The translations under genes were made by a program, and so were the position numbers. Source: Cylindrospermum sp. NIES-4074 (GTDB lineage: Bacteria > Cyanobacteriota > Cyanobacteriia > Cyanobacteriales > Nostocaceae). From it: 64,000 nt of DNA. Positions 1-50,590 of this stretch are shown here, in pieces. Under the pieces are notes generated by a model. It worked only from the letters and a program-made list of their open reading frames with translations, was not told the origin of the DNA and did no database searches. The stretch is taken from positions 1,068,725 to 1,132,724 of the forward strand of contig AP018269.1 in assembly GCA_003994795.1 (NCBI GenBank), in the 5' to 3' direction. Every line of letters begins with the position of its first letter. Positions within the stretch are counted from its first letter, which is position 1.

Positions 1-2166
1 CGCACGCAAAAACAGACCCCATTTCGAGCCGATGTATTCAGCAGGTGAAATTGATGTCAGATCAGCAACCGTAACTTCCCCGTTCCCTTCGTCGCTATCT
101 TCTTCATCTGGTGGAGCTATATTGGTATGTCCCAACTGCTCAAGGTCGCCTTGCCTTACCAAGCGCACGCGCCAACCTTCTAAAGTGCCTTGTTTGACCT
201 CTACGCTCTGACCGCTGAGTGCGGACATCTCAAAAGACTCGCTCCCAATCATTGTCTCGATGGCATTACGCAACGCCTCAAAAGCTGTACGACGTGAAGG
301 TTCATCGCCTGCGTATTGAATAAGCCCAACGATGTTGTGCATCGCCCACACAAAGCGTACAGTGCTGTCTGAACGTTTCTTGGCGTCGTCCTCACGCTGT
401 AAAATCACCGCGACTGTCGTCACACGCGCCCCAGTAAACCAAGGCTCGCCCGAACTTTCCACTAAGGCAACGATTCGGAAATGATCAAGCAAAAACTTTT
501 GCAGCCGGAAGCCATAATTAGTATCCAGCCACGACGATGACACTAAAAAACCGATCCTGCCTCCTTCATTTAAGAAAGTGTAGGCATGTGGGAAAAAGAA
601 ACAATGAATGTCGGAACGAGCTGTGAACTTGCTATCAGGTGATACGTTGTTAGCAATTTGAAGTAGTCGTGTTTTGTAGTTGCTGCCATAATACTCGCCA
701 ATTTTTTCCTGACGGATGTAGGGTGGATTACCAACAACAGCATCAACTAATGGGAATTCACGTGCTTCAAGTAGATTACCCTGCTGTGCAAGCGGCAGAT
801 TGAACGCGATTTCGCCTTGTTTAAGGTCGAAGAAATCAGCACGCAAAACGAATGGATAATTAGCGGCATCAATAAGGTCACGGGTGGCAAGGTTGATAGT
901 GGTTAAATGCGCTGGATAGGCTGAAATATCAGAGCCAAGCAGTTGCGAAAGTAATTCCTGATGACCCAGAGTACCGCCAGCAAGTTCCTTTTTGCGAGCA
1001 TAGGCGCGTACTAAAAATGTTCCACCGTCACATGCTGGATCATAAACGACAGCATCTGCGTCACGGATACAAAAGGTGTTGATCAGGTCAACAATCTCAC
1101 TACGGGTGTAATGCTGACCGAAACGGTGTCGCTCCTCAGGCGAAAGTAAGCGCTCGAAAATTTGACCGATGATTTCGTAACCCAATTGGGTAAAGTCGAA
1201 GGCATCAGTTTGTCGATAAAGATCCCGCCATGAATCAGCAGCGACATCTGATAAAAATGGTAGTGTGTCACCGAAGTCGCCGACAAAAATGGTTTCGTAG
1301 TCGTGTGTAATCTCGCGAGCGTGATTAAAATAGTTGTCGAGTAAAGTTTTCAGTCCTGTTCCTGTCGTAATATCATCACTGATGCGGAAGACGCGAAGAC
1401 GTTTGAAACGGGGATTACGCCTTAACGCCTTATAGAATATAATTCTGTTTGCTAGCACATAGCAAGAGAACTTCGCAGCCGTTTCAAGGTTGTCAGCCCG
1501 AATTTCGGGGTCATCGGAAAGAATTAGTCCTAACTTCTCACGCATCCATGTGTTGAGTTTGACAGTAAATTCTCTATCGATACTACATTGTTGATACAGT
1601 GTGCCAAGGGTCTGTGCAACAGGCTGCTCGAGAGCAGCTTCCCACACGAGCAAGAATTTTTCGTCGAGTGGAACAGTAGGAAGTGCCTCTCTACCGACGG
1701 AAATAGCCGCAAAGCGTTCGAGAAAGCGAATTAGGAACTTTTTTAGTTCGGCTTCACGGCGTCCATCACGCAACTCATCCGACTTCTTGATGGGTGGCTG
1801 AAGAACGTAGAAGTGTTCAAGATCACGCTCAATGAGCGGTGCGTTCTTTAGTCCATCAAACAATACACAGCGATTAATATTCCAAGTAAAAAAGTAAGGG
1901 ATACCCGACCGAGAAGCCTTCAGAAAGGCATCTTCCAGTAGAGCATTACTCATAGGATTGCGTCCATCAGGATTTTCAGGTCGCTTCACTTCGCCCGTCA
2001 ATACTTTTTTATTGTTACGATCAAAGAGCACCAAATCATGACGTTTTGCGGAGCGTTTGACCGTTTCTTCGACGGTAGCATGAGAAAAAGGTAGATCGGG
2101 CCGTGCGGTGCAGATTTCGGTTATCCAAGTTGCGGACTGAGCAGTAATGTTCCATTCGTTTGGCAT
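1..2166 (-). CDS. Type IIG restriction-modification enzyme, MmeI-like (fused PD-ExK endonuclease + gamma-class N6-adenine methyltransferase). Partial: the C-terminus runs off the window start.
   Basis: Reverse-strand reading frame is open from the ATG at 2166..2164 to the window edge, so it is missing from the ORF track. N-terminus has D-x9-E-x-K (LFDRNNKKVLTGEVK), the same spacing as the MmeI catalytic motif. Downstream are MTase motif I 'DPACDGGTFLV' and motif IV 'GNPPYIRQ'. GC is about 50% with no HIP1 sites, unlike the rest of the window. Confidence 0.8.
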   Translation of the reverse strand, partial: MPNEWNITAQSATWITEICTARPDLPFSHATVEETVKRSAKRHDLVLFDRNNKKVLTGEVKRPENPDGRNPMSNALLEDAFLKASRSGIPYFFTWNINRCVLFDGLKNAPLIERDLEHFYVLQPPIKKSDELRDGRREAELKKFLIRFLERFAAISVGREALPTVPLDEKFLLVWEAALEQPVAQTLGTLYQQCSIDREFTVKLNTWMREKLGLILSDDPEIRADNLETAAKFSCYVLANRIIFYKALRRNPRFKRLRVFRISDDITTGTGLKTLLDNYFNHAREITHDYETIFVGDFGDTLPFLSDVAADSWRDLYRQTDAFDFTQLGYEIIGQIFERLLSPEERHRFGQHYTRSEIVDLINTFCIRDADAVVYDPACDGGTFLVRAYARKKELAGGTLGHQELLSQLLGSDISAYPAHLTTINLATRDLIDAANYPFVLRADFFDLKQGEIAFNLPLAQQGNLLEAREFPLVDAVVGNPPYIRQEKIGEYYGSNYKTRLLQIANNVSPDSKFTARSDIHCFFFPHAYTFLNEGGRIGFLVSSSWLDTNYGFRLQKFLLDHFRIVALVESSGEPWFTGARVTTVAVILQREDDAKKRSDSTVRFVWAMHNIVGLIQYAGDEPSRRTAFEALRNAIETMIGSESFEMSALSGQSVEVKQGTLEGWRVRLVRQGDLEQLGHTNIAPPDEEDSDEGNGEVTVADLTSISPAEYIGSKWGLFLRA

Positions 2167-2420
2167 AGGACAATTCTAACAGGATCTAAGTATTGCAATG
2201 CAAAATCGAATATAGCGCTTCCTAATCTGCTGAGGTACAAATTTATCTGTGTTTATCTGTGGTTAAATGATTCTTTCTGTATCTCACTTAACTGAGAAAT
2301 GCTATGTGAGCTGATTTGAATATGAATAAATTGTCAGGTGTACTTATTTGCGCCCAATGCCTCTTTGTCCATTTGTCTAATTAAGCTATCTTTGTTAAAT
2401 AAGATAAGTAGCCTACACAG

Positions 2421-5896: not shown

Positions 5897-6172
5897 TTAA
5901 ACTCACAACTTCATAGTTATTTGTTTATAATGATACATAATTATTGTAATTTACAGCTATTTCTTGGTGATTTGGCGTTCCACAGTCTTATTTTCCGAGT
6001 TTTTTTGCCGAAAAATTTCCCATATCTTGACAATATCTTAAGGAATAACTGGGCATTTTGTTGTGGCTAACACCCCTCTTGATCATCATTTTTGCAAATC
6101 CCATGCCCAACAAAGACAAACTACCCTCAGATTCTAGTATGCTCCTAATGATCGATCGCATTCACAATTTTT

Positions 6173-6949
6173 ATGCTTAATCTGTCCGGAAAAAACGCTC
6201 TTGTTACAGGTATTGCCAATAATCGCTCGATCGCCTGGGGCATCGCTCAACAACTGCACAAAGCAGGCGCGAACTTGGGCATTACCTACTTGCCAGATGA
6301 GCGCGGCAAGATGGAGAAAAAAGTCGCCGAGTTGGTAGAACCCCTCAACCCCAGCTTATTTCTTCCCTGTAATGTCCAAAACGACGAACAGATTCAGTCT
6401 ACCTTTGAGACTATTCGCGATCAGTGGGGCAGGCTAGATATCTTGATCCACTGTCTGGCCTTTGCTAACAAAGATGATTTAAGCGGAGGTTTTAGCCAAA
6501 CCTCTCGCGCTGGATTCAATCTCGCTTTAGAAGTCAGCACCTATTCACTAGCGCAATTAAGCGGTGCTGCTAAACCTCTGATGACAGAGGGCGGCAGCAT
6601 TATCACCCTCACATATTTAGGTGGCGTGAGAGCCATTCCCAATTACAATGTGATGGGAGTCGCTAAAGCAGGTTTAGAAGCAAGTGTGCGTTACTTAGCT
6701 GCTGAACTAGGCCCCCAAAATATCCGGGTGAATGCCATCTCAGCCGGGCCCATCCGCACTTTGGCATCTTCAGCAGTAGGCGGGATTTTGGATATGATTC
6801 ACCATGTAGAACAAGTGGCTCCCCTAAGACGCACTGTTACTCAACAAGAAGTGGGTAATACAGCAGCTTTCTTGTCTAGCGATTTGGCCAGCGGTATCAC
6901 TGGGCAAGTCCTGTATGTAGATGCAGGATATGAAATCATGGGTATGTAA
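6173..6949 (+). CDS. fabI: enoyl-[acyl-carrier-protein] reductase (NADH) FabI
   Basis: SDR fold 'ALVTGIANNRSIAWGIAQ...', with the FabI-typical Y-x6-K region and length. Confidence 0.9.
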   Translation: MLNLSGKNALVTGIANNRSIAWGIAQQLHKAGANLGITYLPDERGKMEKKVAELVEPLNPSLFLPCNVQNDEQIQSTFETIRDQWGRLDILIHCLAFANKDDLSGGFSQTSRAGFNLALEVSTYSLAQLSGAAKPLMTEGGSIITLTYLGGVRAIPNYNVMGVAKAGLEASVRYLAAELGPQNIRVNAISAGPIRTLASSAVGGILDMIHHVEQVAPLRRTVTQQEVGNTAAFLSSDLASGITGQVLYVDAGYEIMGM

Positions 6950-6951
6950 TA

Positions 6952-7046
6952 AATTTGGTAATGGCTAATTGGTAATGGCTAATTGGTAATAGTCTTAATA
7001 ATTAGCAATTACCAATCCCCAATCCCCAATCTCTAATCCCTAATTC
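6952..7046. repeat. STRR heptamer hairpin (ttggtaa / ccccaat)
   Basis: Opposed heptamer tracts in the fabI-hisB spacer. Confidence 0.8.
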
Positions 7047-7048
7047 CT

Positions 7049-7678
7049 ATGCAAATCAGCGATCGCCAAATTCTTTCCCCATTTCCAACTTCCCGCATCG
7101 CCTCAGTTCATCGCACCACAGGCGAAACTGATGTCCATGTCACCATTAACCTCGATGGGACAGGAAAGTGCAACGCAGCAACCGGTATTCCTTTTTTGGA
7201 TCATATGTTGCAGCAAATTTCCTCTCACGGGCTAATTGACTTGGATGTGCAAGCCAAGGGAGACTTAGAAATTGATGACCACCACACCAACGAAGATGTG
7301 GGCATCACTTTAGGCCAAGCGTTGCATCAAGCACTAGGCGACAAAAAAGGTATTGTCCGCTTTGGTAATTTCCTCGCCCCCCTAGATGAAGCTTTAATTC
7401 AGGTGTCCCTAGATTTTTCTGGCAGACCCCACATCAGTTACGGTTTACAAATTCCTACCCAGCGGGTGGGAACCTATGACACCCAACTAGTACGCGAATT
7501 CTTTGTGGCATTGGTAAACCATAGCCAAATGACGCTGCACATTCGCCAACTGGATGGCATTAATTCCCATCACATTATTGAAGCGACATTTAAAGCCTTT
7601 GCTAGGTCAATTAGAATGGCAGTAGAACTTGATCCCCGTCGTGTAGGGACGATTCCCAGTTCTAAAGGCGTTTTATAA
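7049..7678 (+). CDS. hisB: imidazoleglycerol-phosphate dehydratase HisB
   Basis: '[16 protein letters not shown]...[17 protein letters not shown]', the IGPD signature. Confidence 0.9.
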
Positions 7679-7833
7679 ACTAGTTATAATTACTTAGAGA
7701 TAGAAAATGGTGATTGTTAATCACTAAAACATTCCTGAGTGCTGAGTAAGAAGTAAAATCAGACCGACTAAGCATCAACTTGGTCTGTTCACGTAGTGTT
7801 ACGGCAGGCTGGCTCCAAAATGCAGTATGGGTT

Positions 7834-7907
7834 CACTCAGCACTCAGCACTCAGCACTCCGTCCTCAGCACTCAGCACTCAGCACTCAGCACTCAACACT
7901 ACTAAAC
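7834..7907. repeat. STRR heptamer tract (cagcact x~9)
   Basis: Directly visible. It sits in-frame upstream of the ABC ATPase start. Confidence 0.8.
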
Positions 7908-7978
7908 TACTAGGCTGGCGATCATTGACACAACAGACGGTTATAGTTATTGTCAGCCTAGTGCTTGACCTATGTTTT

Positions 7979-8962
7979 ATGAAGTCTATCGCAGACGCTG
8001 CTGATTCTCAAGGCCATCTTACAAACAATCCACCAGTAGTCCTCACTTCTGAGTTGGGAAAAGTCTATCGCACTGGCTTTTGGCTAAATCAAAAAGTCGT
8101 ATCTCTCAAAAGCTGCTCTTTACAAGTTTATCAAGGGGAGACATTTGGATTACTAGGGCCCAATGGTGCTGGTAAAACCACTATTTTAAAACTGTTGCTG
8201 GGAATTATCCGTCCCACCTCTGGACGGGGGTTATTATTGGGTAAGCCAATAGGCGATCGCACAGTGAAGCAACGTATTGGCTATCTGCCAGAAAATCCCT
8301 ATTTATATGAATATCTCACTGGCTGGGAATTTTTGCAGCTAGCCGCTGGACTGTTTCAAATTCCCCAAAGTGTGCAACGCCAACGCATTCCCCAACTGCT
8401 GGAATTAGTGGGTTTATCCCCAGCCGAAGCCCGCAAAAAGCAACTTCGCCGCTACTCTAAAGGAATGCTTCAGCGTGTTGGTATGGCCCAGGCACTAATT
8501 AATGAACCAGACCTAGTATTTTTGGATGAACCCATGTCTGGTCTTGATCCTCTGGGACGCTACCAAATGCGAGAAATTATCCTCTCCCTCAAAGCGGCTG
8601 GTAAGACAATTTTCTTCAACAGCCATATTCTGAGTGAAGTGGAGCAAATTTGCGATCGCATTGCCATCCTCGCACAAGGGGAATTAATTTGTTCTGGTTC
8701 CCTTGATGAACTTTTAGACAGCGACAATACATATCACGTCAAAGGTCAAGGTGGTGACGGAGAAATTCTCAAAAAATGGATACCTAACCTCACATTTGAG
8801 CCTAATGGTTCTTGGCAAGGCACAATACAAGAGGATTACTATGATTTTCTTGCTAGTCTCCGTCTGATGGGAGGGCAAATTACGACAATGAACTTATCTC
8901 GCCAATCGCTGGAAGAGTTTTTTATCCAACAAATCCAAAAACAAAATAACTCTGTTAATTAA
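7979..8962 (+). CDS. ABC transporter ATP-binding protein
   Basis: Walker A 'GPNGAGKTT', ABC signature 'YSKGMLQRVGMAQAL', Walker B 'LVFLDEP'. The track ORF starts at 7796 but its first 60 codons are heptamer STRR (cagcact) sequence, so start taken at 7979 (MKSIADAADSQ). Confidence 0.8.
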   Translation: MKSIADAADSQGHLTNNPPVVLTSELGKVYRTGFWLNQKVVSLKSCSLQVYQGETFGLLGPNGAGKTTILKLLLGIIRPTSGRGLLLGKPIGDRTVKQRIGYLPENPYLYEYLTGWEFLQLAAGLFQIPQSVQRQRIPQLLELVGLSPAEARKKQLRRYSKGMLQRVGMAQALINEPDLVFLDEPMSGLDPLGRYQMREIILSLKAAGKTIFFNSHILSEVEQICDRIAILAQGELICSGSLDELLDSDNTYHVKGQGGDGEILKKWIPNLTFEPNGSWQGTIQEDYYDFLASLRLMGGQITTMNLSRQSLEEFFIQQIQKQNNSVN

Positions 8963-9801: not shown

Positions 9802-10404
9802 TTGCACGCCTCAGAAAAAGAAACAGAAAGAGTTCAATTATTAAGAGTACAATTCTGGCTTCAACTTCAGGGAATACCGGCGGAAAACCTTATATTTATT
9901 GACGAAGCGGGAGCTAATCTATCTTTAATAAGACACTCCGCTCGTTCTAAAAAAGGTAAAAGAGCGCATGGCTCACGACCTCAAAAACGTTGCAAAAATG
10001 TCTCCATCATTGGTGCGATTGCTCTTCAAGGAGTGATTAGTCAATATAGTATTTTAGGAGCAACTGATGGACTGACATTTGAGGCTTATATTTCTCAAAA
10101 ATTAGTTCCAAATCTGTGGAAAGGTGCTTATGTAATTATGGATAATTGTTCAATTCATAAAAGTGGAGAAATTGAGAAATTAATCGAAGCTGCTGGAGCT
10201 AAATTGATTTATTTACCACCATATTCTCCTGATTTTTCACCAATTGAGAATTGTTGGTCAAAAATTAAAAATATACTACGTTCTATCGGAGCTAGAAGTT
10301 ATCCGGACTTAGCAAAAGCAATTGAAACTGCTTTTAGTCAAGTCTCATTAAATGAGATTCATAATTGGTTTACCCATTCTTGCTACTGTACCTCACTAGA
10401 CTGA
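9802..10404 (+). CDS. IS630 transposase OrfB (DDE catalytic part). It is in the +1 frame relative to OrfA.
   Basis: 'FIDEAG...IMDNCSIHKS...YLPPYSPDFSPIENCWSKIK' is the DDE_3 signature. The frame opens immediately at the A9 tract and the stop lies inside the right inverted repeat. Confidence 0.8.
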   Translation: MHASEKETERVQLLRVQFWLQLQGIPAENLIFIDEAGANLSLIRHSARSKKGKRAHGSRPQKRCKNVSIIGAIALQGVISQYSILGATDGLTFEAYISQKLVPNLWKGAYVIMDNCSIHKSGEIEKLIEAAGAKLIYLPPYSPDFSPIENCWSKIKNILRSIGARSYPDLAKAIETAFSQVSLNEIHNWFTHSCYCTSLD

Positions 10405-14965: not shown

Positions 14966-15736
14966 TTACTGAAAATTTACGATTCTGGCGAAACTATCAG
15001 GTTCTAAACTTGCTCCTCCCACTAGGGCGCCGTCAATTTCTGGTTGAGCCATGATCTCATCAATATTATTTGGCTTGACTGAGCCACCGTATTGAATTGA
15101 AACATTGGGATTATTCAACTGGCTGCGAATTAAGCCAATTACCCGATTGGCCTCTTTTGACTCACAAGTGTCACCAGTACCGATCGCCCAAATTGGTTCA
15201 TAAGCAATCACCAAGTTATGCTGATCAACATCCACCAAGTCTTTTTCTAGCTGGGTGCTAATCAGTTTTTCTGTTTCCCCCGCATCCCGTTGTTGTTTGG
15301 TTTCCCCTACACAGAGAATTGGGGTCAGTCCATGCTTTTGAGCCGCTTTTAGGCGTAGATTCACGGTGGCGTCGGTTTCGCCAAAAAATTGCCGTCGTTC
15401 GCTATGACCGACAATTACAAAGCGCACACCAACTTCTGTGAGCATGGGGGCAGAAATTTCACCTGTGTAGGCTCCATATTCTTCCCAGTGGACATTTTGC
15501 GCCCCTAGTTGGATACGGCTACCATGCAAGTACTTGGAGATAACGCTTAAGTCAGTGAAGGGAGGACACAACACCACTTCTCGCTGTGAGGGCGTTTCTT
15601 CCAAGTGGGGCAGAAATCCGCGTAAAAAATCTTCGGATTCTGCCTGGGTTTTGAACATTTTCCAGTTACCGGCAATAACGATTTTCCGCACAGGTGATTT
15701 AATCAAGATGCTAACGCTACTAGATGCATTTTTCAC
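14966..15736 (-). CDS. tpiA: triosephosphate isomerase TpiA (start codon uncertain; may be 10-15 codons shorter)
   Basis: 'VIAGNWKM', '[11 protein letters not shown]' and 'GGASLEP' are TIM hallmarks. Confidence 0.9.
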
Positions 15737-15922
15737 TGTACTACTTTTTATGTCACTCCTTGTCCATCAAGGGGGGAAAGGGTGCTGAGGGGCGATCGCT
15801 TTTTTGAGGTGCGCTCAAAAAGCTAACTTTAACTTAAGGTTGTAGTGCGTAACCCAGAAACCCCTCTGAGGAAAGTGGTCAATGCCATTGAGTGCATCTG
15901 ATGCGATCGCGTAATATTCTCT

Positions 15923-18487
15923 GTGCAGTTCGTGTGCCATTCTTCATGGAGGAGCAAAGTAGTGAAACAAGTTGATTTTGAACAGTTGTGCCAACTTACG
16001 CAACATACTCAGACATCACTGATGGAATATGTGGATTTATTACGAATAGATGCAACTCGCAGGCTCAATTCTACACAGCAAGTAATGATGGGGCAATTTC
16101 TGACTCCTGCACCAACAGCTTCCTTGCTTGCATCTATGTTTGATGTGTCACATTCCTCTATACGTCTTTTAGATGCTGGCGCTGGAATTGGATCACTTTC
16201 AGCAGCTTTTGTGTGGCGAGTATGCCAGCTAGAAAAAAAACCTCAATATTTATCTATTACTGCCTACGAAATTGACCCTAGTCTTATTAATTATCTTCGT
16301 GACACTATCAAAATGTGTGAGTCTGAGTGTCACAAAGCTGGTATTCATTTTACAGCAAATGTTCTTCAAGAAGATTTCATTGAAGTAGGGGTAAATATAC
16401 TGGAAGGTGGATTATTCTCTTCTCCTTGGCAGGAGTTTGATTGTGTAATCCTCAATCCCCCTTATCGAAAAATTCAAAGCAAATCAGAATATCGAAAAAT
16501 TTTAAGTCGAATCAAAATAGAAACGTCTAACCTCTACACTGCATTTCTCTGGCTTACTAGTCGTTTACTGGCTCCCAGTGGTCAATTAGTTGCTATTACG
16601 CCGCGCAGTTTTTGTAATGGCTCCTACTTTAGAAATTTCAGGAAAACTTTTCTAGAGGCTATGCACTTCCAAAAAATTCATACTTTTGAGACACGGAATC
16701 AGGCTTTTAAAGATAATAATGTTCTCCAAGAAAATATTATTTTTCATGCTGTAAAAGCAAAAAATCATGATACTGAAGTAGAAATCATTTCCAGTGTAGG
16801 CCCTGAAGATAAAGTTCCAACTGTTCATCACATTAATCATTCTCAGTTAGTTCAACCGAATGATCCAAATTTGTACATTCGCATTATGACCAATAGCCTT
16901 GATCAACAGATAGCTAAACGAATGATGACATTCACCTGTTCTCTGGATGATCTCGGTTTAACAGTATCTACTGGTAGAGTTGTTGATTTTCGTACAACTA
17001 AATTTTTAAAATATATTCCAGAAAAAGATACAGTACCTCTACTTTACCCTGGTAATTTAGTCAATCGCTCTATTATTTGGCCAAAATTAGATTATAAAAA
17101 GCCAAATGCTATTGTTGCCTGTCCAGAAACCGAAAATTTACTGTTGCCATCAGGTATTTATGTTCTGACAAAGCGATTCACTGCAAAAGAAGAACACAGA
17201 AGAATTGTCGCAGCAGTTTTTGCTCCAAATCAGTTTCCACAGCCGAAGATTGGCTTTGAAAATCATCTCAACTATTATCACTGCAATGGCGCTGGTTTGC
17301 CTGAAAAACTTGCTTGGGGACTAGCTGCCTTCTTAAATTCCACCTTGTTTGATGAGTATTTTCGTCAATTCAATGGACATACTCAAGTTAATAGCACGGA
17401 CTTACGAAGTTTAAAGTATCCTAGCAATGCTCAATTAGAGGATTTGGGCGAAAGGTGTATGTCAGAACTAATAGATCAGGATAAAATTGACAGTTACATT
17501 GAAGAGCTTTTTAGTATGCCCATCAACTCAAATGAATTTGATCCTATAAAGGCAACCAAGCGTATTGATGAAGCACTAGCAATCATTAAGGATTTGGGTC
17601 TGCCTCGTGAGCAATATAATGAGCGGTCTGCTCTGGTACTGTTATCTTTTTTAGACCTTAAGACTGTGGACTCATGGGCGGATGCAAAGGCTCCTATGCG
17701 AGGTATTACTCCAGTCATGAAATTTATTGCTGAAAATTATGGGCGAATCTACAAACCTAACACTCGTGAAACCATAAGGGACGAGACTGTCGCTGCTTTT
17801 GTAAATGCCGGAATTTTAGGAAAGAATCCAGATAAACCAGATAGACCGCCAAATAGTCCGAAGACAGTTTATCAGATTGAATCTGCAATTCTTGCTTTAC
17901 TTCAAACTTATGAAACTGAGCAGTGGAATACGAATTTACGAGATTATCTTATTTCTACTGAAACACTGAAGGCTCGTTATGCCCAGCATCGGGAAATGCA
18001 AATGATACCTATCAAAATTTCTAATAACCTGGATATTAAAATTACTGCTGGCGGTCAAAATATATTAATTAAAAAAGTTATTGATGAGTTTTGTCCCAGA
18101 TTTACACCTGGTGGAGATATTTTGTATTTAGGTGATGCTGGTTCTAAATATGGGTATTGTGACACGAATGCCTTGTTATCGCTGGGAATAACTCTAACTC
18201 AGGCTCAAAAAATTCCGGATATAATTATTAATTACACTGCAAAGAATTGGTTAGTAATCGTCGAGGCAGTATCTAGTAATGGCCCAATTAATGTACAACG
18301 TCAAAATGAATTAAAATCTCTTTTTGGTAATTCTACTGCTGGATTAGTTTTTGTGACAGCTTTTCTGGATCGTAGTATTTTGTTGAAATTTATACACCAA
18401 ATCGCATGGGAAACAGAGGTTTGGATAGCTAGTGATCCCTCACACATGATTCATTTTAATGGTGAAAGATTCCTGGGGCCTTACTAG
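15923..18487 (+). CDS. Fused gamma-class N6-adenine DNA methyltransferase with a C-terminal putative restriction-endonuclease domain (single-polypeptide Type IIG/IIC candidate). Tentatively BsuBI/PstI-like.
   Basis: N-terminal motif X 'GQFLTPAPTASLLASMF', motif I 'LLDAGAGIGSL', motif IV 'VILNPPYRKI' (TaqI/Eco57I-type order), then a TRD-like region. The C-terminal ~300 aa contain 'PDIIINY...LVIVEAV', which resembles a nuclease core. The gene is markedly AT-richer than the flanking tpiA and folP. Confidence 0.65.
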   Translation: MQFVCHSSWRSKVVKQVDFEQLCQLTQHTQTSLMEYVDLLRIDATRRLNSTQQVMMGQFLTPAPTASLLASMFDVSHSSIRLLDAGAGIGSLSAAFVWRVCQLEKKPQYLSITAYEIDPSLINYLRDTIKMCESECHKAGIHFTANVLQEDFIEVGVNILEGGLFSSPWQEFDCVILNPPYRKIQSKSEYRKILSRIKIETSNLYTAFLWLTSRLLAPSGQLVAITPRSFCNGSYFRNFRKTFLEAMHFQKIHTFETRNQAFKDNNVLQENIIFHAVKAKNHDTEVEIISSVGPEDKVPTVHHINHSQLVQPNDPNLYIRIMTNSLDQQIAKRMMTFTCSLDDLGLTVSTGRVVDFRTTKFLKYIPEKDTVPLLYPGNLVNRSIIWPKLDYKKPNAIVACPETENLLLPSGIYVLTKRFTAKEEHRRIVAAVFAPNQFPQPKIGFENHLNYYHCNGAGLPEKLAWGLAAFLNSTLFDEYFRQFNGHTQVNSTDLRSLKYPSNAQLEDLGERCMSELIDQDKIDSYIEELFSMPINSNEFDPIKATKRIDEALAIIKDLGLPREQYNERSALVLLSFLDLKTVDSWADAKAPMRGITPVMKFIAENYGRIYKPNTRETIRDETVAAFVNAGILGKNPDKPDRPPNSPKTVYQIESAILALLQTYETEQWNTNLRDYLISTETLKARYAQHREMQMIPIKISNNLDIKITAGGQNILIKKVIDEFCPRFTPGGDILYLGDAGSKYGYCDTNALLSLGITLTQAQKIPDIIINYTAKNWLVIVEAVSSNGPINVQRQNELKSLFGNSTAGLVFVTAFLDRSILLKFIHQIAWETEVWIASDPSHMIHFNGERFLGPY

Positions 18488-18629
18488 CTTGTCCCACTCT
18501 TGTGCTATTACAATCATCGAGCGCACCACAACATTCAAAAAGCGATCGCCATTCCGAAGGGTTGGAAGTGCGATCGCCATTTTGAAAACTCAATTCTGAG
18601 TCTAAGTTATATATTCGCTGATAGATTAC

Positions 18630-18992
18630 TTAGCGCTTCCCTTCTGCGGCATCAATTAATTTAGCCAGGGACTTAGGATCAAAGTAATGCAAAGATTCAG
18701 CTAACTGCAAGAATTTATTATATTCCTTCTTGGTATATTCAGTTGGCTCATAGCCTAAAACTTTACAAAACTTAAGATAATCGTACCGCCAACGGAAATC
18801 ATTGATTGCGGTACTAAATCGTTTTGCTATTTGCTTGGCTTCTGCGGATATGGTAGTTCTCTGTATATCGTAGCTCTCATCTAATTCTGTCATGATAGGC
18901 ACCCTGTTTGCTTGGTCGTAGCTGAGAAATCTGGTGTAATCTTGGGTAGTGCAAATACTTAGCTGGTCAACCCAGTAAAGTATATTCACCAA
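18630..18992 (-). CDS. hypothetical protein (120 aa; may start at internal Met 'MTELDESYD')
   Basis: ORF only. Convergent with the methyltransferase/nuclease gene. Confidence 0.3.
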   Translation of the reverse strand: MVNILYWVDQLSICTTQDYTRFLSYDQANRVPIMTELDESYDIQRTTISAEAKQIAKRFSTAINDFRWRYDYLKFCKVLGYEPTEYTKKEYNKFLQLAESLHYFDPKSLAKLIDAAEGKR

Positions 18993-19189
18993 GTATCTTA
19001 ACCTAAAATATTACTTATACACAATACCAATAACGATGGTAATAATTTTCTTTACTTCATTCTGGGAGTTTTGGAAGTGCGATGTCTAACGGCAAGCTGG
19101 TGCGTGTCTATGCCTTTTGGGATCGGGGGGCGATATCTGGTCACAAAGCGCTATTACGGTTTAGGAAAAGTATCTAAAAAGCTATGTAT

Positions 19190-20011
19190 TTAGAATTTCT
19201 GGGCAACGTGAAAAGCCGAGAGGTATGATACTTTAATACTTCCCCCAAAGTTCTGCTCTATCTTTTCCCGCAAAAGAGCAAATAAAGCATCCCTAGTCTG
19301 GGGGTTTAGTCCGATGTAGGGCGAGAAAGTACTCAAAAGCAGCAAATAATTATCAACGCTATAGGTGACTTCACAAGGAATATATTCAGAAACTAAATCT
19401 TTAAATTTGCCTGAGTCTATAATTTTCTGTCCCAAACCTTTGAGGATATTGGCTTGAGTTTCTCTATCTTCATATTCCACTAGGGATGGAGCATGAATTT
19501 CATAAGCTTCATTCAAGGTTTGGAATACTTCATATTGAGGTTGAAGGGTCATATTCCACAGCAAAATTAAAGAACCATCATCCTGTAACGTATTAGCAAC
19601 TTTGGCATAACCAACATCTGGTGAAACCCAATGAAAAGAAGTTGCGGCGAGAACAGCGTTGAATTTCCCAGTCTCTAATTCCCATTCTTCAAAGGTGGAC
19701 TGCTGAAACTCGACATTAGGATATGCTGCACAGTTTTGTCGTGCTAATTGGCAAGCTTCTGGACTCGGTTCTAGACAAACCATTGAGTAGCCTAATTGAG
19801 CAAATGATACAGTTGCATTTCCAGGCCCACAGCCTATCTCAAGAATGGCAGCTTCTTCAGGAAGGTGAGCTATTTCCACAACACGATTAACAAGTTCTTG
19901 AGGATAGCGTGGTCTGAGTTTGTTATAGGCATCTGCTACGGGAGAATACCAGGTTTTTCTTTGTTCTAAATCTACAGAATACCAAGTTTTTCTTTGTTCT
20001 GAGTTTTGCAT
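19190..20011 (-). CDS. class I SAM-dependent methyltransferase
   Basis: Motif I 'LEIGCGPGNATVSFAQ' and motif post-I 'VCLEPS'. The N-terminus contains a 27-bp tandem duplication (EQRKTWYS twice). Confidence 0.75.
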   Translation of the reverse strand: MQNSEQRKTWYSVDLEQRKTWYSPVADAYNKLRPRYPQELVNRVVEIAHLPEEAAILEIGCGPGNATVSFAQLGYSMVCLEPSPEACQLARQNCAAYPNVEFQQSTFEEWELETGKFNAVLAATSFHWVSPDVGYAKVANTLQDDGSLILLWNMTLQPQYEVFQTLNEAYEIHAPSLVEYEDRETQANILKGLGQKIIDSGKFKDLVSEYIPCEVTYSVDNYLLLLSTFSPYIGLNPQTRDALFALLREKIEQNFGGSIKVSYLSAFHVAQKF

Positions 20012-20095
20012 AATTTATTCACGAATGCTTTGGTAACATAGCTATAATTTTGTAGTCTAGCTATTTATCTTGCAAAAAAGCACCTAACCTTATTT

Positions 20096-20554
20096 CTACT
20101 TAAATCTCATTAACTGAGGGAAAGATTTGACTAGTGCAACTCCTCCAATTAAAACGAAGACTGACCCCATACCAGTAATCATCGCAGGTGGAAACCATAG
20201 GTCAAACCTACTAAAATTAATCATCGCAGAATTTGGCTTTTGAGGGTTGTATAGAACTTCTACCTGCTGACCTTTAGTAAATGCTGGTGGGTAACTGCCC
20301 GTATTCGATTCAAATATAGTTGGTTCGCCGTTACTTGCAGTAAATTTAACCACTGGATAGTAAACAGAAAAGGAGCGGCCCTCACTATCAGTTGATGAAC
20401 CTAGCTCTAAATCAATTACAGTTCCTTGTGTTGATACTGCTGTGCCGACAAAAGAATGAGTATTAATGCCGATGATGATTCCTATAACCGCACATATACT
20501 GCCAACACCAGCAAATATAGAACCGAACGCCAGAAAAAACTTTGAATCATCCAT
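20096..20554 (-). CDS. DUF3592-like membrane protein
   Basis: N-terminal TM, beta-rich middle 'VYYPVVKF...GQQVEVLYNP', and a C-terminal TM. Confidence 0.5.
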   Translation of the reverse strand: MDDSKFFLAFGSIFAGVGSICAVIGIIIGINTHSFVGTAVSTQGTVIDLELGSSTDSEGRSFSVYYPVVKFTASNGEPTIFESNTGSYPPAFTKGQQVEVLYNPQKPNSAMINFSRFDLWFPPAMITGMGSVFVLIGGVALVKSFPQLMRFK

Positions 20555-21020
20555 AGAATTTTCAAAATAAACTATTAACTTCCGTTATTATCCTACGAAG
20601 ATTTGATACATCAACACTCTATATTTGTCATCCAAAAAGGCTATTTCAGAAATTAGTAAAACTTAAGTTCGGAACAGGATCATCTCTGCGTGGTACTTCA
20701 TGACAAACCCTCTAGCATTATGTCTGAAGTGAGAAGTAACTAGGACTTACGCAAAATTATGAGGAAACGTTCGCGTAGCGTGCCGGAGGCATACCGCAAA
20801 GGACGCAAAGGAATAAGAGTTTTAGAGAGTTATTGCGTAAGTCCTGGGAACGACAAGCGCAATGGAGCGCAGGGCTTTCGGCGGTCAGGTGCAGCGCTTC
20901 TACACTTATAGGTGAGAGGTTAGAGTGTATTGCACTCAAAAGCAAACAGCTATTTGAGGCGATCGCATCGCACTCAGCACACCTTCCCATATCCGCAAAC
21001 CCCTGCTAAAAATAACTAGG

Positions 21021-29412: not shown

Positions 29413-30516
29413 TTATACGCTTGGTGTGGTTTTGTTTTTTGTCTGCTTACTTTCAGCACCCCTATCTGCTAGTTGACGTTTGAGTTGTTTCTGTTGAGTT
29501 GCTTCTGTAGAAGTAACTAATTCTTCATAAAGTTCCTCTTCTTCAGACTTTAACTCCTGGACAAGTTCATCTAATTTGTGTCTAACATCAAGAAGGTTTT
29601 CTGTTTTTTTATCAATTTCCCAATAATAATCGCATAGTCTAATAAAAGTAGCTTTACTTTTATCTTCTCTTAAAATCGTATAAAATTCTTCGTAAGTTAT
29701 TACCTTGCCGTCAGACTTAATAGCAACTTCACCGATGGAATCCTGAATATCTGTCCAAATTCTGTGTTCACCTCCCCATAATTCTCTAAGTTCATTAACT
29801 TTTTTAATCACTGTATCAATATGCTTATTATATTGATAAGCTTGTACAGTAAAAGGCATATTATTACGAATCTTTCTAGCATATGTCATGTAGCAGATTG
29901 TTAAATATAGACTAGAAAAAGCAAAGTGATGTGCGCTAGCATTACACCTGTTGACATAATTTTTCCATTCATCTACATAGTCTTCTGTAACATGGTCTTT
30001 TGCATATTTAATCACCCATTCAAACTCTATTAATTTTTCCAATCCCTTCAATTCTTCTGGCAGTGTCTTTTGTTTGTCCTTGAGTGCTGCTTCATCTTGG
30101 CTTTTTGGTCTATATTGATCAAAATTCTCCAATTTTTTAACAGAATTTTTCTCTTGCTTATCTATTGACGTTTGCGGGTGAATATTTAGCCTTTCTTTGA
30201 AAATAGCATCAAGTCGTACAACTAGTTCTTCAGCAGCAAGCCTTAAAGGGTTTAAATAATCTTTTCTTAAATCAGCTATTTCTTTTCTTCTTTGTTCTTC
30301 TTGTTCTAATTCAAACTTTTTTTCTACTGTTTTAATTCGAGAAGAGTATGCAATCCAGGAAGTTATTAAACCGCTGATAGCACCACCTATTAAACCTAAG
30401 ATTCCTCCTTGGGAAGATGCTGTGTTTGAATCAGCAGGATTATTTGTCTGTCCAAAAACAGGAAGTTGAAAAGTAATGATAAATATTATGAGTGTCAACA
30501 AGAAACTTTTTTTCAT
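29413..30516 (-). CDS. hypothetical membrane-anchored coiled-coil protein (signal/TM + glycine-zipper helix), AT-rich
   Basis: N-terminal 'MKKSFLLTLIIFIITFQLPVFG' and 'GGILGLIGGAISGLITSWIAY'. K/E-rich coiled coil. The gene and its flanks 29280..30920 are much AT-richer than the neighbouring atp genes. Confidence 0.5.
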   Translation of the reverse strand: MKKSFLLTLIIFIITFQLPVFGQTNNPADSNTASSQGGILGLIGGAISGLITSWIAYSSRIKTVEKKFELEQEEQRRKEIADLRKDYLNPLRLAAEELVVRLDAIFKERLNIHPQTSIDKQEKNSVKKLENFDQYRPKSQDEAALKDKQKTLPEELKGLEKLIEFEWVIKYAKDHVTEDYVDEWKNYVNRCNASAHHFAFSSLYLTICYMTYARKIRNNMPFTVQAYQYNKHIDTVIKKVNELRELWGGEHRIWTDIQDSIGEVAIKSDGKVITYEEFYTILREDKSKATFIRLCDYYWEIDKKTENLLDVRHKLDELVQELKSEEEELYEELVTSTEATQQKQLKRQLADRGAESKQTKNKTTPSV

Positions 30517-47379: not shown

Positions 47380-48252
47380 ATGAAAAAGCTCTTAATCACT
47401 GGCGCTAGTGGTTTCTTAGGATGGCATCTTTGCCAACTAGCTAAACAAGAATGGGAAGTTTACGGCACATATTTCTCCCATCGTCAAGAAATTTCTGGCA
47501 TCAAAATGTTGAAAGTTAACTTAACAGACTTTCAAGAACTAAAAGATATATTTAATGATATTCAACCAGCAGCAGTTATTCACACAGCCGCACAATCTCA
47601 ACCTAATATTTGTCAAACCCATCCCCAAGAATCGCACCTAATTAATGTCACCGCATCTTGCAATATTGCTGGACTTTGTGCAGATAATGCAATTCCTTGC
47701 GCTTATACCTCAACCGACTTAGTTTTTGATGGTTTAAAAGCTCCTTATCGAGAAACAGATCCCGTAAACCCGATAAACATTTATGGTGAGCAAAAAGTCC
47801 AAGCAGAAACAGGAATGTTAGAGCGATATCCTCTCACCGCAGTTTGTCGAATGCCCTTAATGTTTGGTATGGCAACACCTACATCTAGAAGCTTCATTCA
47901 GCCATTAATAGAAACCTTAAAAGCAGGAAAAGAACTAAGTTTATTTATAGACGAATTCCGCACACCAGCAAATGTAACAACTGCCTCAAAAGGATTATTA
48001 TTAGCATTAGAAAAAGTTAACGGTTACATTCATTTAGGCGGAAAAGAACGGATTTCTCGTTATGAATTTGGGCGGTTATTAGCCGAAGTATTTCAACTTT
48101 CAGCAGATAAACTAACATCTTGCCGACAAGAAGATGTAAAAATGGCAGCACCCAGACCGGCAGATGTTTCCTTAGATAGTTCTCAAGCCTTTGCTTTAGG
48201 TTATCAACCTTTATCTATTAAAGCAGAATTAGAGACATTGATAAACATATAG
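47380..48252 (+). CDS. NAD(P)-dependent epimerase/dehydratase (RmlD/SDR-like)
   Basis: 'MKKLLITGASGFLGWHL' Rossmann motif and an internal Yxx(x)K. Confidence 0.75.
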   Translation: MKKLLITGASGFLGWHLCQLAKQEWEVYGTYFSHRQEISGIKMLKVNLTDFQELKDIFNDIQPAAVIHTAAQSQPNICQTHPQESHLINVTASCNIAGLCADNAIPCAYTSTDLVFDGLKAPYRETDPVNPINIYGEQKVQAETGMLERYPLTAVCRMPLMFGMATPTSRSFIQPLIETLKAGKELSLFIDEFRTPANVTTASKGLLLALEKVNGYIHLGGKERISRYEFGRLLAEVFQLSADKLTSCRQEDVKMAAPRPADVSLDSSQAFALGYQPLSIKAELETLINI

Positions 48253-49365: not shown

Positions 49366-50154
49366 CTAACAACATTCAACATTTAAAAAATCAGCAATAA
49401 ACTTGCTATATTCATCTTTCATTGATAATTCCAAATCTCGCCGGATGCGTCGCCGTAAAGCAGGCACATTTTCACCAGTAAGAGGGTTAAATCCCAACTT
49501 CTCATACTCCTCCCAATATAGCCCTACGCCCCGTTTTTGCCAATTGGGAAGCTCATTAAAATTAATGCCATGCTGAAACAAAAACTCATTTTTATCAGCA
49601 ACAGATAACCCGTTCATCATATTAGTTGCTTCACCAACACTTTTACCATCTCGACGCAAACACCAATAACTGTGAGCATTCAAAGAGTTTCTGTGTGCAT
49701 CTTCATTTCGCCAACGGAAATAATTTACCACTTCCGTTTTATTAGGAAGTTGGGAGATGCGACAGTCAAAACAGCCAATATCGCCCAACAACAAAGAAAA
49801 TTTGGCACTAGCTTCACCTGCTAAAACAGAATTAAGCTTTCTTAATTTGCGTCCAAAAGAGTTTTCATCCTGAGCCAAAAGTAAAGAAATTTCATCACTT
49901 TGGGTATAACCATAAGTGACATTTAAACCACAATTCATTAGATGTTCAACTGTTGCCAGCATCAAATCTCGAAAGCGAATGTCGTAGGGAGCATCAAATT
50001 TATGGACTTCTTTTGTGAGGCGGGTAAAACTACGTCCATCTAATCTGGCAACCATGTAAATTCCAGGTAGCACACAATAATCATGGGCTGTTTCAAACAC
50101 CCGCATTCTGCTATCAAGTTCATCAAATTTCACGTTGCCATTCCTCAACAACAA
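49366..50154 (-). CDS. Thg1-like protein (tRNA-His guanylyltransferase family 3'->5' nucleotidyltransferase)
   Basis: 'MVARLDGRSFTRL' (Thg1 'VVRLDGRNFHRF'), 'GYTQSDEISLLL' ('AYGQSDEYSFVF'), 'YFRWRNEDAHRNSLNAHSYW' ('[20 protein letters not shown]'), and 'ADKNEFLFQHGINFNELPNWQKRG' ('[25 protein letters not shown]'). Length is correct for the family. Confidence 0.85.
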   Translation of the reverse strand: MLLRNGNVKFDELDSRMRVFETAHDYCVLPGIYMVARLDGRSFTRLTKEVHKFDAPYDIRFRDLMLATVEHLMNCGLNVTYGYTQSDEISLLLAQDENSFGRKLRKLNSVLAGEASAKFSLLLGDIGCFDCRISQLPNKTEVVNYFRWRNEDAHRNSLNAHSYWCLRRDGKSVGEATNMMNGLSVADKNEFLFQHGINFNELPNWQKRGVGLYWEEYEKLGFNPLTGENVPALRRRIRRDLELSMKDEYSKFIADFLNVECC

Positions 50155-50590
50155 AGGGTTTATTTAAATCGTTTTTAACAGAGTAAATTACATCAAACCC
50201 TTCTTCCCAACTTGGCAAAATCAAGTTTTTATAAGTTGCTAGAATTCCCTGTATAGGAACAACTTGTTTACCAGGTCTGCGTTGGTTGCGTTTTTTGCAA
50301 TCTTCTAATTTCACATCAAAATAATAACCAATAACTCGAAACCCGTTAGCTTTAGCCAGGGGAATATAGCGTTGTCTAGCTTCTAAAGTTGGGTTAGTGT
50401 TATCAATAACAAAACGCTGTTTAGCTTCTAAACAAGCTTGAAAAATAATTTTTTCTCGATGACGAGTTTTGAGCATATCCAAATTAATGCGGATATGGGA
50501 ATTAAAAAAGCAATGTTTAAAAAAAGTAGATTTACCCGCTCCTTGAATACCCATAAAAATGATTGCTTCCATAATGACAGCAACTTCCAC
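50123..50590 (-). CDS. P-loop polynucleotide 5'-hydroxyl kinase (AAA_33/PNKP-kinase-like)
   Basis: Walker A 'IIFMGIQGAGKST' and 'VIDNTNPTLEARQRYIPLAKANG', which matches the PNKP-kinase 'VIDNTNPD..RARY' box. Overlaps the downstream Thg1-like gene by 32 nt. Confidence 0.7.
   Translation of the reverse strand: MEVAVIMEAIIFMGIQGAGKSTFFKHCFFNSHIRINLDMLKTRHREKIIFQACLEAKQRFVIDNTNPTLEARQRYIPLAKANGFRVIGYYFDVKLEDCKKRNQRRPGKQVVPIQGILATYKNLILPSWEEGFDVIYSVKNDLNKPFVVEEWQREI

Follow-up and report, generated by a model that had tools for sequence, protein, structure and literature searches.

A fused BsuBI/PstI-family methyltransferase-nuclease gene, probably a single-chain restriction-modification enzyme, in Cylindrospermum sp. 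NIES-4074

We analysed a 64,000-nucleotide stretch of the Cylindrospermum sp. NIES-4074 genome (contig AP018269.1, positions 1,068,725 to 1,132,724 of the forward strand; the window in what follows) that contains a gene for a fused methyltransferase-nuclease of 841 aa (15962..18487, plus strand, GTG start and TAG stop). A complete gamma-class methyltransferase is joined end to end to a complete nuclease of the BsuBI/PstI/SdaI type, and each half has its own DNA reader. It is likely, judging from the alignments described below, that the gene arose when a head-to-tail operon of the BsuBI/PstI family, with the methyltransferase gene (M) followed by the endonuclease gene (R), was read through into one frame, and that the product is a self-contained restriction-modification (R-M) enzyme. 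The family is already annotated in GenBank and RefSeq and its fused architecture is common. The gene is thus ordinary, and its product is an uncharacterised member of a known, database-annotated family.

A methyltransferase and a nuclease in one chain

The gamma-class N6-adenine DNA methyltransferase module (aa 21-516, 16022..17509, plus strand) is identified by Pfam, PADLOC, sequence motifs and fold matches. The Pfam families Eco57I and N6_Mtase both exceed their cut-offs in the N-terminal part of the protein. The motifs follow one another in the TaqI/Eco57I-type order that an earlier, sequence-only reading of this DNA had described: motif X (GQFLTP, aa 44-49, 16091-16108), motif I (LLDAGAGIGS, 16166-16195, in which DAGAGIG is aa 71-77), motif IV (NPPY, aa 165-168, 16454-16465) and then the target recognition domain (TRD, roughly aa 291-516), all on the plus strand. 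In a Foldseek search with an AlphaFold model of the protein, the N-terminal half matched CamA (E=2e-20), M.BseCI (E=4e-19) and M.TaqI (E=3e-16, target TM-score 0.74), and this half of the model has the fold of the monomeric adenine methyltransferases with a C-terminal TRD. The BREX methyltransferase PglX was considered and rejected, as the NCBIfam model BREX_1_MTaseX scored 34.8 bits against a cut-off of 500 and matched residues 170-291 only.

The nuclease half begins with a winged helix-turn-helix (wHTH) DNA-recognition domain (aa 535-670, 17564..17971, plus strand), which matches Pfam BsuBI_PstI_RE_N (PF17728, E=7.6e-52) over the full profile. It continues with a PD-(D/E)XK catalytic domain (aa 671-841, 17972..18484, plus strand), which matches Pfam BsuBI_PstI_RE (PF06616, E=8.4e-62, profile positions 1-154 of 154). 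The catalytic core reads P752-D753...E768-A-V (18215-18220 and 18263-18265 for the P-D pair and the glutamate), and R780 lies at 18299-18301, all on the plus strand. SdaI (PDB 2ixs, E=2e-64) is the only solved relative found by sequence for the C-terminal half, and the fold search leads to SdaI for that half as well (E=1.8e-27). The proposal of a C-terminal nuclease of about 300 aa with a PD...E-x-(V/K)-like core is therefore borne out by both BsuBI/PstI Pfam domains, the SdaI match and the core residues themselves; the alternative of a non-nuclease fold, such as a helicase-associated domain or a domain of unknown function (DUF), fails, since the Pfam check gives a nuclease fold with its acidic residues present.

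In PADLOC, the full length of the protein is matched by model PDLC03359 (840 positions, E=2e-250), and each half also has a match to a stand-alone model, M or R respectively. The AlphaFold model, built from 117 homologues, has a predicted local distance difference test (pLDDT) score of 87 and a predicted template modelling (pTM) score of 0.74, and is weak at the first 17 residues and at the hinge 672-679. It places a coil between the halves, helices at 582-593 and 599-615 followed by a beta-hairpin wing, and D753 and E768 on consecutive strands of the nuclease core. Helix 599-615 (17756-17806, plus strand), the third helix of the wHTH in the model, is the putative recognition helix.

Each half is equivalent to a protein of the two-gene systems. 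The entire 489-aa M protein of those systems corresponds to aa 21-516 of the fused protein (42% identity) and their 317-aa R protein aligns with aa 535-841 (51-52% identity), which suggests that the fused gene is an M→R operon read as one frame, with a linker of about 18 residues (FSMPINSNEFDPIKATKR, 17510..17563, plus strand; predicted coil, variable in sequence) between the two products. In the split form of the family M and R are co-directional and in this order, and they occur on plasmids (198 records) and on Shiga toxin (Stx) phages (99 records). An ATGA overlap between the stop of M and the start of R is seen in an Aeromonas plasmid and in the Stx2a phage P13374. Stand-alone R subunits are about 315-325 aa long and separate from M; here the R module is the C-terminal part of the 841-aa chain.

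Published experiments bear on both the split and the fused arrangement. In Escherichia coli O145 strain RM13514, which carries the Stx2a-prophage system, 98.8% of CTGCAG sites are adenine-methylated, compared with none in a strain without the cassette, and biochemical activity has been reported for an identical R from O104:H4 (PMC3893438). When the Eco29kI proteins were fused by engineering, 80% of the methylase activity and one third of the nuclease activity were kept, and phage was still restricted 100-fold (PMC3039593). In that work Mokrishcheva et al. (2011) listed BsuBI with other head-to-tail systems and suggested that fused derivatives of these 'could exist in nature' (PMC3039593).

Fused proteins of about 820-885 aa make up 118 of the 120 best database matches, at 51-56% identity to the NIES-4074 protein; they come from soil, biogas and other metagenomes, Firmicutes and Ktedonobacteraceae. 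The nuclease half alone, searched against 1.84 billion cluster representatives, gave 296 clusters at E<=1e-30. Of the 86 full-length nuclease domains compared (85 from the database and that of NIES-4074), 28 are fused and 52 stand alone, so that fused proteins account for about one third of the full-length 50%-identity cluster representatives sampled. The two states interleave on a neighbour-joining tree, evidence for two or more deep fused clades. The tree is unbootstrapped, and fragments may be present among the stand-alone entries. For these reasons we dropped a count of fusion and fission events (Fitch minimum of 13 on this tree). Three distant fused homologues are solitary: the genes around them are unrelated and include neither a second methylase nor a controller protein. 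A search of the literature available to us found no paper characterising a natural fused PstI-type enzyme.

The linker includes a methionine, Met519 (17516-17518), that aligns with the start methionine of the separate R gene. The position holds methionine in 92 of 119 fused proteins of the clade (77%) and valine or leucine in 18 more; linker positions around it peak at <=40%. Two glutamate codons (GAR-GAR, Shine-Dalgarno-like) lie 9-12 nt upstream, and the window reads GAAGAG-N9-ATG at 17516. The methionine is not kept in deeper fused clades. Met519 may be a relic of the R start or a working internal start that gives free nuclease; were the latter true, it would be an unrecognised way to set the R:M ratio. 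We regard it as unlikely that the fused frame yields two products through Met519 or, separately, that the altered recognition helix discussed below means a new specificity in the PstI family.

The length of the protein depends on the choice of start codon. The ORF at 15923..18487 (plus strand) exists as the sequence-only reading described it, with 854 aa when counted from its GTG, but the protein is most likely 841 aa, beginning at the second in-frame GTG (15962). This start is preferred because a Shine-Dalgarno sequence, GGAGGA (15948..15953, plus strand), lies 8 nt 5' of the codon, an in-frame stop closes the upstream extension in Cylindrospermum stagnale, the AGGAG and GTG layout is kept in three syntenic copies (AGGAG stands at the same place in C. 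stagnale and in the truncated relative L085 described below), and the 841-aa version is identical to GenBank BAZ28487.1, 'type II site-specific deoxyribonuclease [Cylindrospermum sp. NIES-4074]'. No public sequence record matches the 854-aa version. C. stagnale PCC 7417 has an orthologue with 93% identity, which RefSeq calls 'BsuBI/PstI family type II restriction endonuclease'.

Target site and integrity of the enzyme

The specificity is the weakest step of our explanation. We lean slightly towards a CTGCAG core, which is the best guess because the TRD is little changed and R may cut just what M protects. In three loci with distant fused homologues CTGCAG occurs once where 10.5 copies are expected, which fits CTGCAG as the usual target of the family. 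Cleavage at CTGCA^G that m6A would block is suggested indirectly by the 51% identity of the nuclease half to the R of the validated CTGCAG system. The window contains no CTGCAG (about 17-21 expected; 17.5 +/- 3.9), the site is also absent from the C. stagnale locus, and it is not depleted in non-Nostocales cyanobacteria.

Several observations weigh against an active enzyme that cuts plain CTGCAG. Seven Nostocales loci without the gene at this site hold 7 copies of CTGCAG where 37 are expected, and 15 of the 64 six-base palindromes, that is 14 besides CTGCAG, are at zero copies in the 64 kb. Because of this Nostocales-wide depletion and the other absent palindromes, the absence of CTGCAG from the window is not creditable to the gene, and we dropped it as proof of enzyme activity. 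The putative recognition helix reads RDETVAAF in six of six proteins of the cyanobacterial clade (R607D, H611A, Q612A), where the validated CTGCAG enzyme and 97-99% of 135 further fused proteins have RRQ(S/T)(M/V)HQF. Replacements that are specific to this clade, at sites conserved elsewhere, cluster in the nuclease half, at 12 of 79 sites in the catalytic domain (15%) and 6 of 60 in the wHTH, compared with 5 of 79 in the TRD, mostly conservative, and 1 of 76 (1%) in the methyltransferase core. Together, the helix and nuclease replacements suggest that specificity or cleavage behaviour may have shifted. The lysine of the SdaI catalytic motif, which we take to be K251, is a serine in the fused protein, at a position that is variable family-wide. 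Our literature search found no methylome paper for these strains and no cyanobacterial methylome paper mentioning CTGCAG. Fusion itself had a cost in the engineered Eco29kI protein, where nuclease activity fell threefold and phage protection 100-fold (PMC3039593).

There is a modest chance that the protein is an active single-chain R-M enzyme whose specificity in the cyanobacterial clade is no longer for plain CTGCAG but for another site, such as a longer or altered palindrome; such a shift would be a variant of the best explanation and not an exclusive alternative to it. The RDETVAAF sequence, shared by all six clade proteins and located in the modelled third helix of the wHTH, argues for such a shift, as does SdaI, an 8-bp cutter of the same family that deviates in the same helix. 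The TRD, however, carries only the five, mostly conservative, clade-specific replacements, and CTGCAG is wholly absent from both the window and the C. stagnale locus. A large shift in R alone is also unlikely because a viable system requires R to cut only sites that M protects.

A second alternative, that the protein is effectively an orphan methyltransferase whose nuclease half has stopped cutting and is retained as an additional module for DNA binding or regulation, is quite improbable. It draws on the numerous nuclease replacements of the cyanobacterial clade at otherwise conserved positions (H748A, H773N, K779Q and others), on relatives that lack the catalytic domain and persist as open reading frames, and on a genome nearly free of CTGCAG sites to protect. 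We examined H748, H773 and K779 as lost catalytic residues and rejected them: their changes are no sign of inactivation because conservation at the three positions reaches just 50-67% across the family as a whole, and two of them are also different in SdaI. By contrast, the NIES-4074 protein has P752, D753, E768 and R780, each shared by 84-85 of 86 nuclease domains, and also NPPY and motif I, which are invariant among the methyltransferases compared. Judged from these alignments, all family-universal residues are retained.

Divergence from C. stagnale also argues against an idle nuclease. Within the protein, the ratio of nonsynonymous to synonymous divergence (dN/dS) is lowest in the catalytic domain (0.03), followed by the wHTH (0.06) and the methylase (0.19); the adjacent tpiA has 0.034. 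By this measure both halves are under purifying selection, and the nuclease half is the most constrained part.

The relatives without a catalytic domain are two cyanobacterial loci. The first (L084, 70% identity) has an internal deletion of about 155 codons with a frameshift (9960-10050), and its final 20 codons are recognisable out of frame; the whole wHTH domain and the methylase are retained. In the second (L085, 75% identity, 6112-8082, adjoining tpiA), the gene is truncated inside the wHTH after about residue 629; the catalytic domain is gone and the methylase is kept. These are two independent losses, each of the nuclease part only. Loss of the nuclease first is the usual route by which an active R-M system decays to an orphan methylase, and such losses would be expected if the nuclease is active and costly.

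Avoidance of palindromes in the window extends beyond CTGCAG. The sites at zero copies include TGCGCA, AGATCT, GCATGC, CCATGG, GGTACC, GAGCTC, ACATGT, CCTAGG, CCCGGG and CCGCGG. Such avoidance is common to other Nostocales loci; the most window-specific case is AGATCT (none here against 19.5 expected, 17 against 38.8 in the relatives). At the other extreme, CGATCG occurs 86 times where about 7 copies are expected, as part of the HIP1 element GCGATCGC.

Genomic island and acquisition

The fused gene lies in an AT-rich variable island of 5.3 kb (15737..21020) that extends from tpiA to a GTPase gene. The island contains the R-M gene, an 87-aa ORFan, a 273-aa class I methyltransferase and a DUF3592 gene. 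Its position had been given as an insertion between tpiA/folP and a methyltransferase/DUF cluster; the position is right, but the methyltransferase and DUF3592 genes share the variable island with the R-M gene. The GC content of the gene is 0.373, compared with 0.45-0.47 in its neighbours (z=-1.7, the fourth lowest of 41 ORFs in the window), so that the AT bias noted earlier is real, although moderate and not strong.

Judged by synteny, homologue distribution and composition, the gene is horizontally acquired. It has no counterpart in the tpiA slot of seven other Nostocales loci; other Nostocales have unrelated genes upstream of tpiA and no R-M gene there, and in two Nostoc relatives tpiA and the GTPase gene are merely 148-200 bp apart. 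Identity drops from 93% to 79% to about 56% within a few matches, with about six cyanobacterial homologues and the next matches, about 55% identical, from other phyla. The homologues are AT-richer than their flanks in five of six hosts examined. These observations make it very improbable that the gene is a vertically inherited Nostocales housekeeping methyltransferase, a reading that would account for the same slot being occupied in three cyanobacterial contigs and for a synonymous divergence (dS) from C. stagnale of 0.27, close to the 0.36-0.58 of the neighbouring genes. The empty slots, the steep fall in identity and the AT bias likewise speak against a Nostocales core gene, the outcome that the sequence-only reading had named as contrary to its own view. 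The dS value instead suggests acquisition before the divergence of the two Cylindrospermum strains, followed by vertical inheritance.

Least credible of all is an artefact, either a frameshift or sequencing error that joined two genes, for which the stop/start overlap of the two-gene forms would need one indel, or a decaying pseudogene, given that both Cylindrospermum genomes and more than 115 homologues of about 840 aa, from several phyla and data sources, have the same uninterrupted frame, and that purifying selection acts along the entire gene.

The R-M gene is solitary in the island, with no second methyltransferase or controller (C) protein accompanying it. The 273-aa methyltransferase was considered as a second DNA methylase of the system and rejected, as it matches generic class I S-adenosylmethionine-dependent methyltransferase families and no NPPY or DPPY motif was seen. 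The ORFan (NIES4074_09220, 18630..18893, minus strand) had been listed as a 120-aa ORF that might co-occur with the R-M gene. With its start corrected it is 87 aa long, and it is not beside the distant fused homologues. Only 5 homologues turned up among 5.8 billion proteins, each of them from a Cylindrospermum-like genome, and in C. stagnale the ORF is found beyond the 273-aa methyltransferase. The small number of homologues, all in close relatives, and the different place in the C. stagnale island argue that it is not a partner of the R-M gene.

Island content differs even between the two Cylindrospermum genomes. The 273-aa methyltransferase (19190-20011 in the window, minus strand; L001 12589-13410) is 68% identical between them, and the flanking genes 88-97%; the methyltransferase gene and the 87-aa ORF have changed places, and the DUF3592 gene (20096-20554) is present in the window only. 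A 25-nt direct repeat with 33-nt spacing (19943-20000) at the 5' end of the 273-aa methyltransferase gene duplicates the peptide EQRKTWYS. In Desmonostoc vinosum (L004 6959-7617) the slot between tpiA and the GTPase gene contains a 144-aa PIN-domain protein and, upstream of it and overlapping it, an ORF of 75 aa, probably a toxin-antitoxin pair with the PIN protein as the toxin, which suggests that this slot gathers selfish modules in different lineages.

Searches for signs of mobility and expression gave little. A candidate pair of terminal inverted repeats (15883-15917/20931-20969) was rejected, as its score of 25 compares with a shuffle maximum of 26, the alignment owes its score to the palindromic HIP1 element and C. 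stagnale has no such repeats. No tRNA that could mark an integration site was found in 1-30000, the four island ORFs (the R-M, 87-aa, 273-aa and DUF3592 genes) gave no match to integrase or transposase families, and a promoter and terminator scan of 15700-19200 returned counts at chance level.

A second R-M-type gene lies at the left edge of the window, which cuts it (1..2175, minus strand), as the sequence-only reading recognised in counting two such genes within 16 kb. This partial gene is a Type IIG-like endonuclease-methyltransferase (PADLOC PDLC03606, E=3e-33; Pfam Eco57I and N6_Mtase). It is unrelated to the fused system and is a separate R-M candidate. Other ORFs with a GC content of 0.33-0.38, no less AT-rich than the R-M gene, may be foreign too; they lie at 29413-30516 (minus), 50123-50590 (minus), 9802-10404 (plus) and 47380-48252 (plus).

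Proposed mechanism and comparison with known systems

If the fused protein is an active R-M enzyme directed at a CTGCAG-core palindrome, the methyltransferase half would mark the adenine of this site on host DNA, and the nuclease half would cut unmethylated sites on incoming DNA once two chains dimerise on the palindrome. The methylase half would be active as a monomer, like its structural relatives. At the low concentration that follows arrival in a new cell, the enzyme would then methylate without cutting, because the methylase is predicted to be monomeric while cutting would need two nuclease domains. Such assembly control is an idea that has been stated for Type IIC enzymes (PMC12707154); together with the fixed 1:1 stoichiometry, it would take the place of the transcriptional controls on which two-gene systems depend.

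The enzyme would be a probable restriction barrier to transformation or conjugation of Cylindrospermum sp. NIES-4074 or C. stagnale PCC 7417, and DNA for transfer into these strains would best be CTGCAG-free or pre-methylated, a practical value that we consider modest. More broadly, the gene would be a natural case of what was predicted in 2011 from the engineered fusion, an orthodox two-gene Type IIP system collapsed into one chain. Biochemistry of one fused member would test self-regulation by assembly, with a methylating monomer and a cutting dimer, and would also bear on how two independent readers of one site cooperate on one polypeptide.

By domain architecture, with both enzymes predicted on the same polypeptide, the protein is of Type IIC. 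Like the Type IIC/IIG enzymes Eco57I, MmeI and BpuSI, it would combine restriction and gamma-class adenine methylation in one chain. It is not Type IIG-like, because its domain order is reversed and it has two readers, including a separate wHTH, instead of one shared specificity module. Type IIG enzymes have an N-terminal nuclease, a central gamma-class methyltransferase and a single shared specificity module and make distant cuts at asymmetric sites, whereas the fused protein has two independent readers (TRD and wHTH) and is expected to cut within a palindrome. The PADLOC REase_MTase_IIG models match only about 120-140 residues of the methyltransferase core (E=4e-8 or weaker). In a 2014 review, BtgZI was the only characterised enzyme with an N-terminal methyltransferase and a C-terminal nuclease (PMC4081073). 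It shares the N-terminal methyltransferase and C-terminal PD-D/EXK nuclease with the fused protein, but its methyltransferase is alpha-class (PMC4081073).

Among the closest known systems, the Type IIP pairs BsuBI, PstI and EcoGIII (CTGCAG; P13374, Aeromonas and Pseudomonas plasmids) are homologous to the fused protein over the full length of both proteins, and share the M→R order, the wHTH and PD-(D/E)XK domains of R and the gamma-class M. They differ in having two genes with an ATGA overlap, where NIES-4074 has one polypeptide with a linker of about 18 aa, and, in the recognition helix, in having R, H and Q where the fused protein has D607, A611 and A612.

SdaI (PDB 2ixs; CCTGCAGG) aligns with the nuclease half over 320 residues at 35% identity and has the same two-domain layout, with P232-D233 and E248 aligned to the P-D...E of the fused protein. 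The overall root-mean-square deviation of 17.5 A is large, which would fit a hinge between the two domains that is set at another angle. SdaI is a stand-alone protein of 323 aa with 8-bp recognition, whereas the NIES-4074 nuclease is part of a fused chain. The engineered RM.Eco29kI, finally, likewise unites end to end the two proteins of an orthodox Type IIP pair, encoded by a head-to-tail operon whose stop and start codons overlap, but it is artificial, has the order R→M, and joins a GIY-YIG nuclease to a C5 methylase through a two-glycine linker.

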